A stretch of 64,000 nt of DNA. It comes from a virus (Duplodnaviria; Heunggongvirae; Uroviricota; Caudoviricetes). The notes under the pieces are model-generated. The model was not told where the DNA came from, made no database searches, and saw only the letters and a program-made list of their open reading frames with translations. Where the stretch lies: IMG/VR virus record IMGVR_UViG_3300009614_000107; one strand, written 5' to 3'. The position numbers were made by a program, and so were the translations under genes. Every line of letters begins with the position of its first letter. Within the stretch, counting starts at the first letter, position 1. Shown here piece by piece: positions 5,015 to 48,813 of the stretch.

Positions 5015-6157
5015 CTACTCTACTGCTCTCTTGGTTGAAGGAGAACGAAGAATAGGCTCTGGTGGAGAAGAACGAAGAATAGGAGAAGGACCCGCACGGA
5101 TTTCAGGAGGAGAGATTCGTTCTGGCATACCTGTGTGTACCGTCTGTAGTCCAGACTTAGATTGGAACTTTGCCTCTGCTGCTGATTTGCCAGATGGTGA
5201 TTTGTAGTAACTATGTGTTATGTTTGAGTAGTAACCACCGCCAGCTATATCCTTTGATATTCCTGGTCCCTGAACAACTTGTGACTCTTTTGGCGATCTA
5301 GTACTACCAAAATCAATTGGTCCTTTAGGTGGACTTATTGGATTGCCTATATTTATTGGAACACTGCCACCACCATAGACGTAGCCACCACTCTTATTTA
5401 CACCAACCCACGCTGGCTCTTCTGCCACAGATCTATCTAGATAAAGGGAAATTCCCTTATGCTCTGCTTTTGCTTGTCTTGCGAGTTTACGTAATGCTAA
5501 ACTGTTGTCAAATGATGGCTCTGAGAAATCCATTATGTCATAGACTTCTGGATAGAAGTTCTTTATTGTTGTACGTGCTGCGTTTCTCTTGATTCTGTCT
5601 GATGAATAGGCAGCGTTAATCAGTTTTCTAACGTTTTCCTGTTCAACCTTACTCACATATTCTGTGGCTGTTGCCTTGAGTGCCTGAGCTCCAGCTTTGG
5701 TTCCTTTCTTTGCAACATCAAAAGCAACGTTTCCACCCTTAACAGCATATTTTGCACCAAGTTTGACTGCTGTTTCTCCGTGCTTTCTGATTGCCTGGAC
5801 TCCTCTTGTGGCTGCTTCCTTGGCTGTGTTTCCTATGAATGATAGGACTGAACTTATTGATGGGTCAATGAGATCAACTGCTATTGGTGTTCTTCTGCTA
5901 GTACGCTCTTCGTATGCCTCATCAAGTGCAGAAGCATATGAATCTGCAATAACTACAACTGATTCTCCGTCATCTTTCTTGTTTGAATAGATGAAATTGG
6001 CTGTAAAAGCCTTTGGTCCAATTGCCATTGCTGGCCCACCTTTTTTGGTTTTTACAACTTTTCCACCAGCACCACGTTTATATGTGCGTACTATAGTACC
6101 ATCTGTTTTCTTGTGTCCTTTTACAATGTGCTTTATCGGGTGCTTTCTTCCAGCCAT
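5015..6157 (-). CDS. basic protein with N-terminal HxVxxH tag and shared beta-beta-alpha-beta module (putative virion protein)
   Basis: N-terminus KHIVKGHKKTDGTIVRTYKRGAG; module FTANFIY...VVVIADSYASALDEAYEER; Pro/Ser-rich tail. Confidence 0.65.
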   Translation of the reverse strand: MAGRKHPIKHIVKGHKKTDGTIVRTYKRGAGGKVVKTKKGGPAMAIGPKAFTANFIYSNKKDDGESVVVIADSYASALDEAYEERTSRRTPIAVDLIDPSISSVLSFIGNTAKEAATRGVQAIRKHGETAVKLGAKYAVKGGNVAFDVAKKGTKAGAQALKATATEYVSKVEQENVRKLINAAYSSDRIKRNAARTTIKNFYPEVYDIMDFSEPSFDNSLALRKLARQAKAEHKGISLYLDRSVAEEPAWVGVNKSGGYVYGGGSVPINIGNPISPPKGPIDFGSTRSPKESQVVQGPGISKDIAGGGYYSNITHSYYKSPSGKSAAEAKFQSKSGLQTVHTGMPERISPPEIRAGPSPILRSSPPEPILRSPSTKRAVE

Positions 6158-6165
6158 TTTTTAGA

Positions 6166-6717
6166 TCATCCCAGAATGTTTACTTTTCCACCGTTATAGT
6201 AGTACTCAAAAGTATCTCCATCTTTTCCGATTACCCTATAATATGGAGCATAGTTATGAATTCCTGCTTGTGTCTGGTAGTAGTTTACATCATCGTAGAA
6301 GTCAATGAGTCTGAATTCCTTGAAGCTGTCAAGAACATTCTCCTCACGATAGCCGAAGGGGTTGTTTACTCTCTCCTTGCCTGACTTGCCCTTCCACTGA
6401 TCTAGAAGGAAATCTAGCCCTTTCTTGTTTTGTTCTGCTGTTAGTTTAAAACCCTCTCCATCCTCTGGCCAAGGTATATCATCATACTTTATTCTACCAG
6501 CATTGAGCCTATTTTTCCATAACTTCAAATCACTCTCAGAGACTACTCTGCCTTCTGTGCTGACAGATCTCTTCAAGTAGTGTGGAATTGTAATAGTTCT
6601 CTTGCTAGGCATTCCGTGACCACTGATGTAGTTTCTAACGTGAATTACTTTACCATCAACGTGTCTAGTATGTGAACTTACCTTGTGCTGGACTGGTGAC
6701 TTTCTTCCCATACGCAA
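6166..6717 (-). CDS. protein with N-terminal HxVxxHxR tag (putative virion protein)
   Basis: QHKVSSHTRHVDGKVIHVRNYISGHG. Confidence 0.65.
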   Translation of the reverse strand: MRMGRKSPVQHKVSSHTRHVDGKVIHVRNYISGHGMPSKRTITIPHYLKRSVSTEGRVVSESDLKLWKNRLNAGRIKYDDIPWPEDGEGFKLTAEQNKKGLDFLLDQWKGKSGKERVNNPFGYREENVLDSFKEFRLIDFYDDVNYYQTQAGIHNYAPYYRVIGKDGDTFEYYYNGGKVNILG

Positions 6718-26604: not shown

Positions 26605-28161
26605 TTAACTCTCTTCCTCTTGAACAATTTCTGGGATGGGGTTGTACTTCTCGATAGCCTCAAGTACCTTGCTCCTGTCCTCTTCGAACCTCTTTATGAA
26701 GTCGAAGATGCGGTCACTGAAGCCACCGATGATGGCAACGTTTGGCTCTGTGTCTGGAATCTGAACTGTGCCGTAGCCAGCTAGGTCGAAGAGATAGAGT
26801 CTTACCTTTGGTTGCATTGTCTTGTACTTTAGGAACCACTTATAGAGGCTGTCCTGACTTCCAAATGCACCATATCTGCCATCGGTATCCCATAGCTGTT
26901 CATCAGTGAAGATCATTACACGATCTGTGAGGAGTCTGTTGTCCACTAGGTACTTGAATACTAGATAACCATTTGTTGCAGAGTCAGTGTCTGACATCAG
27001 TATCTTCTTGGCATCTCCTAGGATTGACTTGCCTGATATGTTGACGGTCATAAACCTAGTTCCGAATGCAGAGGCAACGGCAGCTTCACAGAAGCCATTT
27101 GCCATAGCACCCATCACAGCACCAATTTCACGCCTCTCTATCTTTGATCTTTCAGATACTGGTGACTGCATTGAACCTGAGTTGTCTACAGACACAAGTG
27201 TCCTTCCACCAAGGTTAGGGATATTGCTGACTGAGATTGACATTGCGGTTTCAAGAGCATTGAGTATTTTCTTACTGTCGAATGGATCAATGTTCTCTCC
27301 TGCATCTTCGATCATCTTGTAGGCAGAGAGGAATCTATATGGGAACTGCTTGCTATTAGCAACTGCCTTTGGATTAGTCAGGTGCTTTAGGACAGAATCT
27401 AGATCTGCCTTAGCCTGTGCAATGTTTCTGAGGTTACGTAGTTTGGCCATATAGCCCATCTTAGGAATGACTTCGTTCCAGGCTTCCTTGTTGTTGCCCT
27501 TGGCTGAGATTACGGTTTCCCAAGTCTCAGGGACAGCTAGAGTGCCAGTCCTAATCTTCTTGAAGAGTTCTGACTTCTCTGGAGTGTCTGGTACAGGATG
27601 TGTTAGTCTTAGAACGTCTGAGAGCTTGACGGACTTATCATCCATCTTGTATTTTCCAAAGTCATATTCACCGAAGTTATGGAAGGAATCGGCTATGCCT
27701 AACTTGAACTGATTAGGAAGGCTTGCTTTACCATTGCTACCAATCTCACCGTTCTTGTTGATGAAGCAAGAAAGCATCTCTGAGAGTTCGTCTGCTCTCT
27801 TGATTATGAATGGCATCCACCAACGGACATACTTTTTTGCCTCTGGATTAGTAAGTCCCTCAACTGTGAGGAACATTGGGGCAGAGCGCAAGTACATCTC
27901 ATTGCGGAGATATGAGGCTAGTTTGAATATGAATTCAGGATCCTGCTTTGAAACCTGAGCAATAAGTGCCTTGATATCTTCTGTCTCGGTTGCTTTGTCA
28001 CCGTAGAATTTTGGCTCACCAACGAGCCAAGTTGCAGCACGTAGATAGAGTTCGTTCTTGGCATTTGTCTTGAATGCCACACCACCCTCATAATTTGAGG
28101 TTATGTCTGGGTGGGATTCTACCTTTTTCCCTATCGAAGGGTTTCCGTTGAATTTCGGCAT
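26605..28161 (-). CDS. rsr: Ro60/TROVE domain ribonucleoprotein with vWA domain
   Basis: NYEGGVAF, DPEFIFKLASYLR.EMYLRSAP, RADEL, KY...VKLSDVLRLTHP, TWETVIS, MGYMAKLRNLRN, QFPYRF, vWA VDNSGSM and IFTD; start moved to MPKFNG after an AGGAGA RBS. Confidence 0.92.
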   Translation of the reverse strand: MPKFNGNPSIGKKVESHPDITSNYEGGVAFKTNAKNELYLRAATWLVGEPKFYGDKATETEDIKALIAQVSKQDPEFIFKLASYLRNEMYLRSAPMFLTVEGLTNPEAKKYVRWWMPFIIKRADELSEMLSCFINKNGEIGSNGKASLPNQFKLGIADSFHNFGEYDFGKYKMDDKSVKLSDVLRLTHPVPDTPEKSELFKKIRTGTLAVPETWETVISAKGNNKEAWNEVIPKMGYMAKLRNLRNIAQAKADLDSVLKHLTNPKAVANSKQFPYRFLSAYKMIEDAGENIDPFDSKKILNALETAMSISVSNIPNLGGRTLVSVDNSGSMQSPVSERSKIERREIGAVMGAMANGFCEAAVASAFGTRFMTVNISGKSILGDAKKILMSDTDSATNGYLVFKYLVDNRLLTDRVMIFTDEQLWDTDGRYGAFGSQDSLYKWFLKYKTMQPKVRLYLFDLAGYGTVQIPDTEPNVAIIGGFSDRIFDFIKRFEEDRSKVLEAIEKYNPIPEIVQEEES

Positions 28162-28220
28162 TTTCTTGTTTCTCCTTTCTGGTCTGAAAATGTCAATTCC
28201 AATCAACCCCTTTTGGGATT

Positions 28221-28288
28221 GAAGAGGAATGAGTCGCATCGGGAATTTCGGTTTTGGTGGTGAAGTATCCCGATACTACGCCATCTTC
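28221..28288 (-). ncRNA. Y-RNA-like element Y1 (minimal; in the ro60 leader)
   Basis: GAAGA-TGGCGTA-GTATCGGGA-TACTT...TCCCGATGC-GACTCATTCC-TCTTC; TATA at 28312-28319. Confidence 0.75.
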
Positions 28289-29203: not shown

Positions 29204-29797
29204 TTAGAAGGTAAGTGGATTCCTAGCTGTATTTGACGTGCAGATAGTGAAACTTCCGTCTATGAGCTTTTGCAGGATTGTTTCCTTGTCTAGACTGTCA
29301 ACATCCATTTCCATCCAGCTTGCTCGAAGCTGATAGGGCATATGTAGATCGTCTGAGGCATAGAAGTTCATACCCTGGAACTCGTCAAGATTATTTGATA
29401 TCTGAAGGATACCAGAATTGAACATCTCAAGACCGTTAATTGTTGGGAAGTTTCTCATTAGTACATCAATACTGGCAGATGTTAGATCTGACAGTCTGGG
29501 ATGGGATATCCATTTAACTCTACAGGACTCCCATATTTCGATAGGCATTCCTGTCGTTTTTGTTGGTTCTAATCCTAGGAGATGAGTCATACCATATGCA
29601 CTGTACTCGATTCCCTTGAACAGTAGGTATTTCTTCCTAAGTCCTTTCAGGTGAAGAGGGTGGGGAATAGTTAGAGTGTCGTGATCTGTTATGGCCACAA
29701 CTTGATATTTGGTTGTTAGAAGTTTGAGTAGGCTGTGAATATCCAGCTCGCCATCACTCATATTTGAGTGATTATGTAAACTAAGTGCTATGTGCAT
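29204..29797 (-). CDS. PHP-family metal-dependent phosphoesterase
   Basis: LHNHSNMSDG, AITDHD, GIEY, SHP, ASDDLH. Confidence 0.85.
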   Translation of the reverse strand: MHIALSLHNHSNMSDGELDIHSLLKLLTTKYQVVAITDHDTLTIPHPLHLKGLRKKYLLFKGIEYSAYGMTHLLGLEPTKTTGMPIEIWESCRVKWISHPRLSDLTSASIDVLMRNFPTINGLEMFNSGILQISNNLDEFQGMNFYASDDLHMPYQLRASWMEMDVDSLDKETILQKLIDGSFTICTSNTARNPLTF

Positions 29798-29950: not shown

Positions 29951-30189
29951 GCATAAGGAATACATTCTGAATTTATAAATATTAACTAAGCAATAACTTC
30001 CTTCACAGTAACTATATCATAATAGTTTGGTTTCACAACCTTTTCATTTCCGTGTGCTTTTCCAATATGAATAAAAAGTTTTCCAGATAGCTTGCTTCTA
30101 CACGCAGATACCAAAAGTGGTGAACCTGTATTATTCTGAATTTCAATTTCTTCAGACATAAACATCCACAGAATAAAATATGTTTGTAT

Positions 30190-30372
30190 TTATAAATATT
30201 TGGTAAGTACCTCCATTGCCCCTCCACAACGTGGGCATCCGTTTTTAACGTTAGAGTGGGAAACTCCCCAGTGCCACTGTGGGCCTTCTCTTCCGTTCCA
30301 TCTGTACCTACGGTTCCTACCTGTCCCGTAGTCATATCTAAACACACGTGTACCGCATTTGGTACACCTCAT
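30190..30372 (-). CDS. Zn-ribbon protein
   Basis: MRCTKCG...CPRCGG; start moved to the in-frame ATG at 30372. Confidence 0.6.
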   Translation of the reverse strand: MRCTKCGTRVFRYDYGTGRNRRYRWNGREGPQWHWGVSHSNVKNGCPRCGGAMEVLTKYL

Positions 30373-30465
30373 CAATATCTGTCTGGTTTGCAACTTATGT
30401 TCACACTAGCTCATAGCCAGAATCCGTGAACTTGGGACTCTAGCTTATGAACTAGTCATTCGTTG

Positions 30466-30540
30466 CCTTCACTCCTCTTCACCATACAGCACATCACTTT
30501 ACTATACTTGACTTCACAATACTATACTCCACTATACAGC
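30466..30540. repeat. 5-nt periodic tract (ACNNN)n, 15 units
   Basis: ccttc actcc tcttc accat acagc acatc acttt actat acttg acttc acaat actat actcc actat acagc. Confidence 0.85.
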
Positions 30541-30588
30541 ATCTGTAAAGTCTACCCCATTAGAATTTATAAAGATTTGTGAGAAGTC

Positions 30589-30667
30589 GGTGTGCATAGA
30601 GAACCAATGACCTACCCAGTGAGGCGAGAGCCACCCTATGCACACCTTTTTGAGTGAACGGCTCTCG
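30589..30667 (-). ncRNA. H-type pseudoknot RNA PK1
   Basis: S1 CGAGAGCC/GGCTCTCG interleaved with S2 GGTGTGCATAG/CTATGCACACC; own TATA at 30691. Confidence 0.7.
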
Positions 30668-30700
30668 TGTAAGAAACACACGTGTGTACGTTTATAAATA

Positions 30701-30823
30701 TTATGGATTACTAGTTCCTTTCTTGAGGCTTCTTCGATAAAGCCAAATAAGGAACCAGGCTGTAACAACAGCAGAAACATAGAAGGCTAGAACAACAGCC
30801 TCATCCCAAGACAATTCTATCAC
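30701..30823 (-). CDS. 40-aa single-TM peptide (not in ORF track)
   Basis: GTG start after an AAGG element; hand translation MIELSWDEAVVLAFYVSAVVTAWFLIWLYRRSLKKGTSNP. Confidence 0.55.
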   Translation of the reverse strand: MIELSWDEAVVLAFYVSAVVTAWFLIWLYRRSLKKGTSNP

Positions 30824-30833
30824 CTTGAATCTT

Positions 30834-30935
30834 GGTACGTGAGGTGGGAACTACTTTGTCTCTCTGTCGGGGCTTACTGTCGATGGGAACGGGATTCCTC
30901 ACGTACCCTTGACGATGCCTCTGCCGTTCCCAATC
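30834..30935 (-). ncRNA. H-type pseudoknot RNA PK2
   Basis: S1 TGGGAACGG/CCGTTCCCA interleaved with S2 GGTACGTGAGG/CCTCACGTACC; own TATA at 30953. Confidence 0.7.
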
Positions 30936-31003
30936 TGTACACGGTGTACCAGTTTATAAATTTTTGGGAATAGATGGATATTTTTCTGTATAAATTAAAA
31001 ATT

Positions 31004-31087
31004 TGAAGGGAATTGTCGCAAAGCGATATTGGCTTTCGCCAATCCAATTTTCAGTCAGATGAAGTATCGCTCGGCTACGCCACTTCA
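31004..31087 (-). ncRNA. Y-RNA-like element Y5
   Basis: TGAAG-TGGCGTA-GCCGAGCGA-TACTT...ATTGGC-GAAA-GCCAAT...TCGCTTTGC-GACAATTCC-CTTCA, then a T-run; TATA at 31108. Confidence 0.8.
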
Positions 31088-31132
31088 CCACAAGAATAGA
31101 CTGTGAATTTATAAATATTTGGGTTAAAAATT

Positions 31133-31211
31133 AGAAAGGAATTGTCGAAGGGGGAAACTGGCTTTCGCCATTCCATATACAGTAGAAGTATCCCCATTCT
31201 ACGCCATTTCT
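31133..31211 (-). ncRNA. Y-RNA-like element Y6
   Basis: AGAAA-TGGCGTA-GAATGGGGA-TACTT...TGGC-GAAA-GCCA...TCCCCCTTC-GACAATTCC-TTTCT, then a T-run; TATA at 31234. Confidence 0.8.
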
Positions 31212-31243
31212 GATCCTAAGAACACAATACGAATTTATAAATG

Positions 31244-32626
31244 TTATCCAAACCAATCATCCACAGGCTCTGGAGTGACTGGAATTACGGACTCAAGTCC
31301 ATATATCAGACGCTTTCCAATATAGGTAACAACTCGTGTTGTTACAGCATTTCCACACATTTTATAACGTTGTGTGTCTGATATCCTAACTTCTTTTCCA
31401 TCAACAATGCCTGTTGCTGTCCAATTGTCTGGGAAGGCTTGTAAGCGTTCACACTCGATTGGTGTCAAGCGTCTGATTCTGCGTTCAACATCTCCAACAG
31501 CTTCAGCATCTGCGACAAGAGGTAGATGCCCACCCCCTGCTGGAGTTCGAATAGTAGGTGAGTTCTCGATAGAAACTCTTGGCTTATCTTCACCAAATCC
31601 ACCGTAGATATTGTGAAGCATAACTAAGTTGTCCTTTGCTACGCCTGTAAGGTTGTTTGAGATCTCTTTGGGTGTTTCTAAGTTTCTACCAAGTCCAGCT
31701 TTGGTTCTGGTTCTATCAGCAACTATCATTATGCCCTGTGGCTCTTGCGCTGTAAGAGTGAATGAATCTTCACCATCTTCTTTTATTCGCTCACCGTTCT
31801 GTGTTTTCTTTAATCTATTTGGAGTAAGGACAGGCTGAATGATTAAAGGATTGTTGTTACCAGCATTTGAGGCTGGGATTGTTCTAACCTCATCTTGCAT
31901 ATGATATTGTTTCTTTACGTTTGGCTCTTTAGGGTTGGTTGAGGATATTGCCTTGACTTCATCTGATGCTATGACGGTTCTCTGAGCGTGATTGTCTACT
32001 CCTTTGAAGTAGTTTCCATCGATAGCGTGTGCGACTTCTCCCCATTCTTCAAGTTGTCCAATAGCCGTTTCACCGATGTCGATGAAAGGAAATACTGCTC
32101 TGGAACTTCCTTTTCCAAGATGTCCGACAATGAAGATCCTTTCACGGTTTTGGGGAACACCGAACCACTTAGTATTGAGAACTTGCCATTCGCATCTGTA
32201 TCCGATATGCCCCAATTCTTCCAAGATAATTCTAAAGGTATGTCCCTTATCGTGGTTGAGGAGTCCTTTGACATTTTCCAGAAGGAGTAACTGGGGTCGA
32301 TGATGTTCTGCAATTCTGACAATTTCCCGAAATAGAGTTCCACGTATGTCGTCAAATCCTTCCCTTCTACCAGCGACACTAAATGCTTGGCAAGGAAATC
32401 CACCACAGAGAAGATCGTGCTGTGGAACTTCTTCAGGAGATACGGTTCTGATATCTCTTGTATCGACTGTGGTTTCTGGGAATCTTGCTCTGTAGACGGA
32501 AGAGGCATACTTGTCCCACTCGTTTGCCCAGACACATTTGAAGGAACTGCTTGCTTGAGTGAGTCCGTAATGAAATCCTCCAATTCCTCCGAAGAGGTCA
32601 ATGAACCTGACTTCTTTGATTTGCAT
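31244..32626 (-). CDS. DNA cytosine-5 methyltransferase with extended multi-module variable region
   Basis: IDLFGGIGGF, GGFPCQAFS, LLLENVKGL, QNRERIFIV, RRLTPIECERLQAFPD, RYKMCGNAV. Confidence 0.93.
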   Translation of the reverse strand: MQIKEVRFIDLFGGIGGFHYGLTQASSSFKCVWANEWDKYASSVYRARFPETTVDTRDIRTVSPEEVPQHDLLCGGFPCQAFSVAGRREGFDDIRGTLFREIVRIAEHHRPQLLLLENVKGLLNHDKGHTFRIILEELGHIGYRCEWQVLNTKWFGVPQNRERIFIVGHLGKGSSRAVFPFIDIGETAIGQLEEWGEVAHAIDGNYFKGVDNHAQRTVIASDEVKAISSTNPKEPNVKKQYHMQDEVRTIPASNAGNNNPLIIQPVLTPNRLKKTQNGERIKEDGEDSFTLTAQEPQGIMIVADRTRTKAGLGRNLETPKEISNNLTGVAKDNLVMLHNIYGGFGEDKPRVSIENSPTIRTPAGGGHLPLVADAEAVGDVERRIRRLTPIECERLQAFPDNWTATGIVDGKEVRISDTQRYKMCGNAVTTRVVTYIGKRLIYGLESVIPVTPEPVDDWFG

Positions 32627-46740: not shown

Positions 46741-46876
46741 TGGTGGCGAGTAAGGGATTCGAACCCTTGTTGGAACTCTACAGTGCCAGGTTTCTCCCGA
46801 AGCGGTCTTGAGCCTCACCTTTAGCCGACCCTCATCGTCCTAAGCCTGGTGCCTTCGACCACTCAGCAAACTCGCC
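46741..46876 (-). tRNA. tRNA-Leu(TAG) with 47-nt intron (46792..46838)
   Basis: Long variable arm, loop CT-TAG-G then intron then A; relaxed BHB. Confidence 0.88.
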
Positions 46877-48161: not shown

Positions 48162-48318
48162 TGGTGCGTCTGTCGGGGATCGAACCCGAATCTTCAGCTT
48201 TCCTCCCCTGTGTTATTTCGACACTTTTCCCATACCGTCTGAGACTATTTGACGGATTTTGAGTCCACTGTTTGGGCAGGGATGGAGGGCTGGAGTGCTA
48301 CCATTACACTACAGACGC
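48162..48318 (-). tRNA. tRNA-Gly(TCC) with 83-nt intron (48200..48282)
   Basis: BHB central helix CCTC/GAGG with 3-nt bulges; intron at position 37/38. Confidence 0.85.
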
Positions 48319-48322
48319 TCTT

Positions 48323-48476
48323 TGGTGCTCTCTTTGGGATTCGAACCCAAGTTGATGGGTATCTTCGAGATGCCGAAACGCCCCACCAGGTTTTACTCGT
48401 CTTAGCGCAATGTTCCTCACGGATACATTCATCTCTTGAAAGCCCACCGTCCTTGACCTAGCTGAACGAAGAGAGC
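48323..48476 (-). tRNA. tRNA-Glu(TTC) with 76-nt intron (48361..48436)
   Basis: Strict BHB: CTTT/GAAG central helix, GAGATG/CATCTC outer helix. Confidence 0.9.
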
Positions 48477-48478
48477 TT

Positions 48479-48548
48479 TAGGACGGTAATCTAAAGGAAG
48501 TGCATAGTGCTGTGCAGTGTGCGGTTTTCCTTTGTGACTACCGTCCTA
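48479..48548 (-). ncRNA. 70-nt rod-like hairpin heading the tRNA operon
   Basis: TAGGACGGTA/TACCGTCCTA and AAAGGAA/TTCCTTT stems; between the TATA (48570) and tRNA-Glu. Confidence 0.55.
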
Positions 48549-48813
48549 TACGTAAAAAAACAGTATGCGTTTATAAATTTTATGCCGTCTTAGGTTCTAG
48601 CTTTTCCTTATCTTTCATCATATCTCTGATTTCTCTGAGATATGAGTTCATTGTACTGACCCTAATTAAGAGCCAGACTGATGCTCCAACAAATATTACA
48701 ACTGCTGGATATACCCAAGAGGCAAGAAGCCAGAATATAATTGTATCCGAGAACGCCAACGTTTTGTCGCCATACAGATAATATATAGTGTATTTATAAA
48801 GATTGTTGAATTT

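Follow-up and report, generated by a model that had tools for sequence, protein, structure and literature searches.

The DNA analyzed here is a 64,000-nucleotide (nt) stretch, hereafter the window, of the IMG/VR virus record IMGVR_UViG_3300009614_000107 (Caudoviricetes), whose source is a 197-kb contig present in peat and wetland metagenomes. All window genes lie on the minus strand. Downstream of a DNA methyltransferase gene we find two Y-like RNA genes, an H-type pseudoknot (PK2, 30834–30932), a 40-amino acid (aa) open reading frame (ORF40, 30701–30823), a second pseudoknot (PK1, 30589–30667), and a zinc-ribbon open reading frame (ORF). The two pseudoknots frame the tiny membrane-protein gene ORF40 in a PK2-ORF40-PK1 module, which belongs to uncultivated, probably archaeal tailed viruses of peat and wetland, and each represents a new, small family of conserved pseudoknot RNA in this uncultivated virus lineage of archaeal type. 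The window further encodes a TROVE/Ro60 protein (26605–28239) with its best named relative in Halogranum tailed virus 1. Genes for two RNA ligases and a class II CCA-adding enzyme are also present, together with at least 16 tRNA genes, and relatives of the window virus encode MCM, inteins, and PTH2. The window probably represents a tailed virus of archaea whose small units are closely packed, each with a promoter of its own.

PK1 and PK2 are both encoded on the minus strand, and each consists of two perfect interleaved helices, one of 8–9 and one of 11 base pairs (bp) (all positions are for the minus-strand RNA, written in plus-strand coordinates). In PK1, the first helix S1 (CGAGAGCC) joins 30660–30667 to 30625–30632 over 8 bp, and the second helix S2 (GGUGUGCAUAG) joins 30636–30646 to 30589–30599 over 11 bp, or over 13 bp when it is extended with one G:U pair; the loops measure 13, 3, and 25 nt. 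In PK2, S1 (UGGGAACGG, 30924–30932 with 30884–30892) is 9 bp long and S2 (GGUACGUGAGG, 30897–30907 with 30834–30844) is 11 bp long, with loops of 16, 4, and 39 nt. A previous sequence-only reading of the window had placed the stems and their interleaved topology correctly for both elements; its start for PK2, at 30935, has to be moved to 30932. The junction between S2 and the 3′ arm of S1 (S1′) is 3 nt in PK1 and 4 nt in PK2 in all six sequences described below. The 5′ and 3′ ends of the RNAs are not paired with each other, and there are two helices only, with no three-way junction. PK1 and PK2 are alike in stem lengths and in the 3–4-nt junction, and they have no unpaired bases in common. Within the PK1 family, loop bases are partly kept (GUYCAC...CAAA in loop 1, UGGUUC in loop 3). 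There are no tandem repeats in the region 30575–30962.

We located homologs of the two elements in related virus contigs, using a search anchored on two neighboring proteins, a PHP-like protein (29204–29797) and the zinc-ribbon ORF (30193–30372). PK1 is found in contig L164 (4584–4660, by blastn; identical in L165 and L166), in L178 (3644–3717, by covariance model; 29.7 bits, E-value 2e-4), and in L188 (6910–6988; 51.6 bits, E-value 2e-11). A PK2 homolog is present in L188 (6649–6733), where it has a 7-bp S1 of the same sequence as in the window and a 10-bp S2. The sample is thus small: one virus group supplies four sequences of PK1 and two of PK2. Short contigs encoding the PHP-like protein (L181–L183) do not reach the upstream region, and contigs from four peat runs are identical across the pseudoknots and provide no population variation. 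Searching the GenBank phage collection by blastn with positions 30150–31260 returned no match, and neither did scans of IMG/VR with the Ro60 and PHP proteins. Four DNA patterns used against IMG/VR returned either nothing or chance matches (GC-rich phages, a metalloprotease gene).

The four PK1 sequences, aligned by MAFFT from sequence only, contain standard pairs in 82 of 84 stem cells (97.6%). Two-sided pair changes number eight, of which S1 has three and S2 five. The observed pairing and covariation were matched in 0 of 500 column shuffles, and sliding the partners by 1–3 columns as a control lowered pairing to 34–63%. One S2 position is C:G, U:A, or U:G depending on the genome. In PK2, the window has GGUACGUGAGG as its S2 arm, L188 has GGCGCGGGGG, and both arms find a perfect partner, which amounts to four compensatory double changes; the S1 sequence is conserved between the two and gives no covariation information. 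One-sided changes are tolerated as G:U pairs only on the minus strand of the window, which identifies this strand as the transcribed one and speaks against a DNA-level signal. These comparisons show that selection acts on the two helices of each element at the RNA level, on the strand that is sense for the genes. A 3-bp mini-hairpin past S1′ looks covarying in three PK1 copies, is weak in L188, and is not claimed here.

The sequence-only reading had proposed a structured RNA class, an idea that hung on homologs retaining both stems. Homologs in three other virus contigs do keep both, through compensatory changes, and we are highly confident that PK1 and PK2 are real, selected pseudoknot-forming RNAs. 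Its description of the two as unrelated sequences holds at the sequence level, where a model built on PK1 does not detect PK2; a distant shared origin may still lie behind the two families. Its remark that PK1 carries no ORF also stands. We considered PK1 as coding sequence and rejected this candidate: loop insertions and deletions of 6 and 7 nt shift the frame between homologs, and no frame is conserved.

A scan of the 64-kb window for interleaved perfect stems by a loose criterion (stems of at least 8 and at least 10 bp, loops of up to 70 nt) returned PK1 and PK2 as sole matches. With the same criterion, dinucleotide shuffles contain on average 0.3 matches per window, and two or more were seen in 10 of 200 shuffles (5%). 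Such stems are present in 23% of shuffled windows, a frequency that might be taken to favor inverted repeats that arose by chance, or signals read in the DNA (recombination sites or protein operators, for example), in either case with no role as RNA. A tight definition (stems of at least 8 and at least 11 bp, at least 4 G/C per stem, and a junction of up to 6 nt) was reached in 0 of 400 shuffles. This definition is post hoc, as it was set after the data had been seen, and the comparative evidence from homologs therefore carries more weight: both helices covary across independent genomes, and several changes preserve pairing only through G:U on a single strand, a pattern for which neither DNA hairpins nor protein sites would account. 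An origin by chance or as a DNA signal is strongly disfavored, and we regard its probability as close to negligible.

Nested folding accommodates one helix at a time. We approximated the pseudoknot energy as the sum of the two stacking energies plus a penalty of 9 kcal/mol, and these rough values range from −27 to −34 kcal/mol, compared with nested minima of −24 to −30.5 kcal/mol. By this rough estimate the pseudoknot is clearly best for PK2 (−33.9 versus −23.9 kcal/mol for the nested minimum), and the pseudoknot and nested energies are about equal for the PK1 copies. Loop lengths permit both helices together, and simultaneous formation appears plausible from these models.

Both window elements contain a second complement to their own S1. 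In PK2 this is GUUCCCA (30845–30851, minus strand), which abuts the 3′ arm of S2 (S2′) and would form 7 bp, all of them Watson-Crick. An equal helix is found there in 20 of 20,000 loop shuffles, and the nested PK2 minimum uses it. In PK1 the corresponding segment is GGUUCUC (30599–30605, minus strand), which includes one G:U pair and both abuts S2′ and overlaps it by 1 nt. Its frequency in loop shuffles is 195 of 20,000, and its support is ambiguous, with its 3′ bases doubling as pairs 11–13 of the extended S2. The second complement is missing from L188 PK2 and contains an A·C mismatch in L188 PK1. It would make possible an alternative fold, in which the 5′ end of the RNA would be stacked within a continuous helix of 17–18 bp. 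As a conserved switch we rejected it: although statistically non-random in the window copies, it is mismatched in one L188 element, lost from the other, and hard to separate from the S2 extension. A major-groove triplex between the second pyrimidine copy and S1 was likewise discarded, reasoning from the sequence that the strand polarity is wrong for PK2. Pairing across the two elements, between an S2 arm of PK1 and one of PK2, is plausible in L188 alone and not in the window.

We next turn to promoters and gene order. The window contains 38 exact TTTATAAA boxes, and all of them are oriented toward minus-strand transcription, an orientation read from the strong asymmetry of their upstream flank: position −4 is A in 37 of 38 boxes and −3 is A in 36, −2 is T in 33, and −1 is A in 33. 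The same box precedes Y-like RNA genes and tRNA genes, with the mature 5′ ends of the tRNAs at +25 to +27, and a leaderless ATG lies at +24 from it. One uniform promoter, tC(a/c)(a/t)AATA-TTTATAAA, serves tRNAs, Y-like RNAs, pseudoknot RNAs, and apparently leaderless mRNAs, and the stretch from box to start often reads ACAC...TTCTTA. Among the 38 promoter-proximal RNAs there is a weak signal for paired 5′ ends (p = 0.04), which is driven by non-coding RNA genes. One further promoter-led structured RNA lies at 48420–48577 (minus strand; minimum free energy −42.2, z-score −4.0, 0 of 200 shuffles) and has a 13+7-bp hairpin at its predicted transcript start. The 5′ arm of this hairpin (AGGACGGU) repeats ∼95 nt downstream, giving the 3′ arm two possible partners, and the RNA has no Rfam match.

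The PK2 promoter has its TATA box at 30953–30960 (minus strand) with the consensus flank CCCAAAAA ahead, and the consensus TATA box of the PK1 promoter (P_up; 30691–30698, minus strand) is kept in all four PK1 homologs. In every one of the four PK1 copies, as in window PK2, S1 begins 21–24 nt past the TATA box, and the first transcribed bases are therefore predicted to lie inside S1. PK1 has its own consensus promoter and opens the transcript predicted to start there. Counted from the last base of the box, the distance is 24 nt for PK1, as the sequence-only reading had it for both elements, and 21 nt for PK2. That each element starts at a promoter is true of all four PK1 copies and of window PK2 and fails for L188 PK2, which has no TATA box of its own and directly continues from a Y-like RNA.

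A further TATA box (P_down; 30566–30573, minus strand) is located 15 nt past PK1, ahead of a pentamer-repeat RNA and the zinc-ribbon ORF. It is found 12 nt past PK1 in L164 and L178 and is degenerate (CTTAAATA) in L188. The repeat RNA comprises ∼14 GUNNN pentamers (30395–30565, minus strand) between this promoter and the zinc-ribbon ORF; related pentamer tracts occur in other peat contigs, and they are absent from the L188 homolog of this leader. The zinc-ribbon ORF itself (minus strand) encodes 60 aa with a CxxC...CxxC pattern, is 67–75% identical in L178 and L188, and has no Pfam or PHROG match. Runs of five T are absent from the minus strand between 30997 and 30077, and the two upstream Y-like genes end in TTTTT. 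With no oligo-T stop past PK1, its transcript is predicted to read on into the downstream small gene.

Gene order is largely shared among the related contigs. L188 repeats the window order of methyltransferase, two Y-like RNAs, PK2, ORF40, PK1, and zinc-ribbon ORF; exceptions are L164, which has no PK2, and L178, which has no ORF40. In L178 the order is P_up, PK1, P_down, and an 80-aa ORF followed by three runs of five to six T, and in L188 a 98-aa ORF lies 56 nt past PK1. The gene downstream of PK1 differs in all four genomes (zinc-ribbon, 64 aa, 80 aa, 98 aa).

In all four genomes, PK1 starts 18–33 nt past the stop codon of the ORF that precedes it, and in three of them the next TATA box follows 12–15 nt behind it. 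Moreover, there is no oligo-T between ORF40 and PK1, so that ORF40 transcripts are predicted to contain PK1. These distances would suit an element that serves the upstream gene, either as a 3′-end cap against 3′–5′ decay by the exosome or by helping to end transcription and insulate the units. We judge this distinctly unlikely: the strictly conserved promoter 21–24 nt before S1 would be needless, PK2 has the same architecture and sits 5′ of its gene, and archaeal termination is not known to depend on RNA structure. A recoding pseudoknot, for which a spacing of 5–9 nt from a slippery site or leaky stop and an extended frame beyond the knot would be expected, was rejected as well, given the location of PK1 18–33 nt past the stop codon and behind a promoter, with no conserved frame through it.

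ORF40 (minus strand) encodes one transmembrane (TM) helix and a basic C-terminal tail. Syntenic homologs are found in L164 (40% identity over 30 aa, E-value 8e-5) and in L188 (46% over 24 aa, E-value 1e-6), with sizes of 40–43 aa across homologs, and no Pfam or PHROG family was matched. The 40-aa single-TM frame that the sequence-only reading had seen after PK2 is thus real and conserved. PK2 lies in the 5′ untranslated region (UTR) of ORF40, as its 5′ leader, and in both PK2 genomes it ends exactly 7 nt ahead of the ribosome-binding site AAGGUG.

This fixed spacing is consistent with a more dedicated role, in which the pseudoknots control ORF40 as a possibly toxic membrane peptide, PK2 acting as a translational operator or switch and PK1 as a partner RNA or 3′ element, in a toxin-antitoxin-like or autoregulatory circuit. 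PK1 follows ORF40 in three of four genomes, the peptide has the size and shape of a type I toxin, the start region of window ORF40 is folded (z-score −2.7), and the second S1 complement next to S2′ in both window pseudoknots permits an alternative fold. However, PK1 occurs without ORF40 in L178 and ORF40 without PK2 in L164, the alternative pairing is disrupted in both L188 pseudoknots, and the L164 ORF40 message is not unusually folded (z-score +0.6). A helix of at least 7 bp between PK1 and the ORF40 start region is absent in the window, and an 8-bp match in L164 is kept neither in the window nor in L188. The PK1/ORF40-mRNA duplex energy is no better than that of shuffles (144 of 300). Nothing is encoded antisense, with all 38 promoters pointing in the same direction. 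We did not find the conserved complementarity between PK1 and ORF40 mRNA that the suggested pair of RNA antitoxin and peptide toxin would call for, and we regard dedicated control of ORF40 as rather unlikely. A type III (ToxI-like) toxin-antitoxin system was rejected, as the region has no tandem repeats and no adjacent ToxN-like gene.

The pseudoknots are part of an RNA island. Two Y-like RNA genes (31004–31087 and 31133–31211, minus strand) share the pattern UGGCGUA...GAUACUUC, and each is TTTTT-terminated in the window. The pair is conserved at positions 6410–6630 of L188, where the second Y-like RNA runs into PK2 without terminator or promoter, and other peat contigs contain diverged copies. 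Upstream of the island, the cytosine-5 DNA methyltransferase contains a Hint-type intein in L188 (3497–5881) and none in the window (31244–32626). A resolvase and an IS605 OrfB/TnpB-type gene are inserted just downstream of the PHP-like gene in L173 (3472–5275) and L174 (4899–6702). L164 encodes on the opposite strand a LuxS protein of the autoinducer-2 synthase family (5226–5771), and it has a FeoA-domain gene (1182–1574). Two tRNA matches in the window (46744–46876 and 48165–48318, minus strand) measure 133 and 154 nt, implying long inserts or introns in viral tRNA genes.

From their surroundings, PK1 and PK2 could be discrete, trans-acting small RNAs of this Ro60/Y-RNA island that serve as substrates, decoys, or tethers by binding Ro60 or some other protein of virus or host. 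They reside within an array of individually promoted Y-like genes, 2.4–2.7 kb upstream of the TROVE/Ro60 gene, and the order Y-like, Y-like, PK2, ORF40, PK1 is retained in L188, where PK2 is physically continuous with a Y-like RNA. The L164 Ro60 gene lies ∼3.4 kb from its PK1, and PK1 has its own promoter in all four genomes. Against this stands the absence from the pseudoknots of the UGGCGUA...UACUU motif of the adjacent Y-like units, and the Y_RNA and YrlA models give no match. Unlike the Y-like genes, the pseudoknots lack a terminator of five T. A descriptor scan and two covariance models returned nothing in ∼0.9 Mb around 80 archaeal-virus-like Ro60 homologs (up to 54% identity), and among 160 Ro60-anchored loci from metagenomes and genomes (2 Mb) descriptor matches occurred only in high-GC bacterial DNA. 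The idea of a Ro60 substrate or decoy thus has the neighborhood alone in its favor, with no such pseudoknot near the ∼80 other archaeal-virus-like Ro60 loci, and we consider a trans-acting role of this kind rather unlikely.

We also compared the elements with the bacterial and phage Y RNAs (YrlA/YrlB), which act together with Ro60. The likeness consists in small, promoter-led, non-coding RNAs near a Ro60 gene, in a virus that also encodes RNA ligases and a CCA-adding enzyme. In contrast, PK1 and PK2 lack both the Ro60-binding stem in which the two RNA ends pair and the motif of the neighboring Y-like RNAs, their topology is pseudoknotted, and such a knot is not found near most Ro60 homologs examined.

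Rfam contains no family for PK1 or PK2 at its gathering thresholds, and at E-values of up to 10 we obtained no relevant match, including ribozyme and riboswitch models, for the window, L164, and L178 sequences. A self-cleaving ribozyme or a ligand-sensing riboswitch built on an H-type pseudoknot had nevertheless to be weighed: two interleaved helices, of which the first sits right at the 5′ end, recall the way P1 and P2 are nested in hepatitis delta virus (HDV)-like ribozymes, and loop bases of the PK1 family are partly kept. HDV-like and theta ribozymes share with our elements the helix order a-b-a′-b′ and a first helix that starts from the RNA 5′ end, and theta ribozymes are found in tailed-phage genomes near tRNA genes. 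However, the 3–4-nt junction leaves no room for P3, L3, or P1.1 between b and a′, there is no G:U pair at the base of the first helix, and no ribozyme model matches. The sequence-only reading had excluded the HDV/theta layout on the same junction, in our view correctly. PK1 and PK2 share no unpaired nucleotides and hence no common catalytic or binding core, and the genes downstream are mutually unrelated. We regard a ribozyme or riboswitch as very unlikely.

We tentatively favor a different reading, to which we assign slightly less than an even chance: PK1 and PK2 would be general-purpose leader pseudoknots, acting in cis to shield viral transcripts or to control them. A generic element that depends on shape is suggested by the conserved architecture, by the freedom of the loops to vary and, when PK1 is compared with PK2, of the entire sequence, and by the unrelated small genes downstream. 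In such a leader, S1 would pair the first transcribed bases and bury the 5′ end in a helix, and the knotted fold may provide a mechanically tough block to 5′-end-dependent decay by archaeal RNase J or aCPSF2-type 5′–3′ exonucleases. The message downstream would thereby be shielded, and its translation level could also be set, especially by PK2, which sits beside a ribosome-binding site. Function would rest on architecture rather than on particular loop bases. The second promoter past PK1 would yield two message forms, one with and one without the knot. In L188, PK2 could guard ORF40 by the same block once the upstream Y-like RNA has been cut away. Among the three functions proposed by the sequence-only reading, a 5′-end shield fits best with the features of the locus.

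Several points weigh against cis-acting leaders. Transcript starts, ends, and read-through are motif predictions. Covariation reports selection on both helices and is not proof that they coexist in time. L188 PK2 is not 5′-terminal in the primary transcript and would need processing of the upstream Y-like RNA. The second promoter, 12–15 nt past PK1 in three of four genomes, indicates that the downstream gene does not need a transcript bearing the pseudoknot, and PK1 itself could end at the U-rich TATA region as an independent small RNA. Finally, we found no exonuclease-blocking pseudoknots from archaea or their viruses in the literature searched.

Known 5′ leaders and decay-resistant RNAs offer partial precedents for cis-acting leader pseudoknots. 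The gene 32 leader of phages T2 and T4 contains a compact H-type pseudoknot at or near the mRNA 5′ end, which nucleates binding of the encoded protein in an autoregulatory loop. PK1 and PK2 resemble it as H-type knots near the 5′ end of a message from a tailed prokaryotic virus, upstream of a ribosome-binding site. They differ in their much longer stems (8–9 and 11–13 bp), in the genes downstream of PK1, which change from genome to genome, and in the archaeal host machinery they would face, and there is no sequence or Rfam match between the two. Bacterial 5′-terminal stabilizing stem-loops of the ompA and aprE leader type are simple hairpins that are portable ahead of unrelated genes and guard against 5′-end-dependent RNases. 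The pairing of the first transcribed nucleotides and the portability of the element are shared with PK1 and PK2, which in turn add a conserved interleaved helix and belong to an archaeal virus.

The exonuclease-resistant RNAs (xrRNAs) of flaviviruses and plant viruses are viral pseudoknotted folds proposed to block a 5′–3′ exonuclease mechanically, in which shape counts over sequence and tandem copies occur. Built as three-way junctions or stem-loops, they enclose the 5′ strand in a ring, are found in the 3′ UTRs of eukaryotic RNA viruses, and act against Xrn1. In contrast, PK1 and PK2 are plain two-helix H-type pseudoknots at the transcript 5′ ends of a DNA virus, have no match to Rfam xrRNA models, and any resistance they confer is putative. 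It is conceivable, if doubtful, that PK1 and PK2 are the first counterpart of xrRNAs from a prokaryotic virus, namely portable two-helix caps at or near transcript 5′ ends that stall host 5′–3′ RNases. In such caps, the second S1 complement of the window copies would tuck the 5′ end into the continuous 17–18-bp stack. A bolder variant pictures conformationally bistable RNAs on which the Ro60/Y-RNA machinery of the virus itself would act.

Little is known of how archaeal viruses exert control through RNA, hardly any structured RNA families have been defined for them, and the literature we searched contains no description of such pseudoknot elements in archaeal viruses. We now report two covariation-supported pseudoknot families with a clear genomic grammar of promoter, knot, and gene, in an unusual setting, an island of Y-like RNAs, Ro60, RNA ligases, and a tRNA array. 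Even with an ordinary leader role, the six sequences and two models enable a targeted search of peat metagenomes and metatranscriptomes. If PK1 and PK2 do block archaeal 5′–3′ decay, they would provide a small portable stabilizer for archaeal genetics and would extend to archaeal viruses a strategy known only from eukaryotic RNA viruses.

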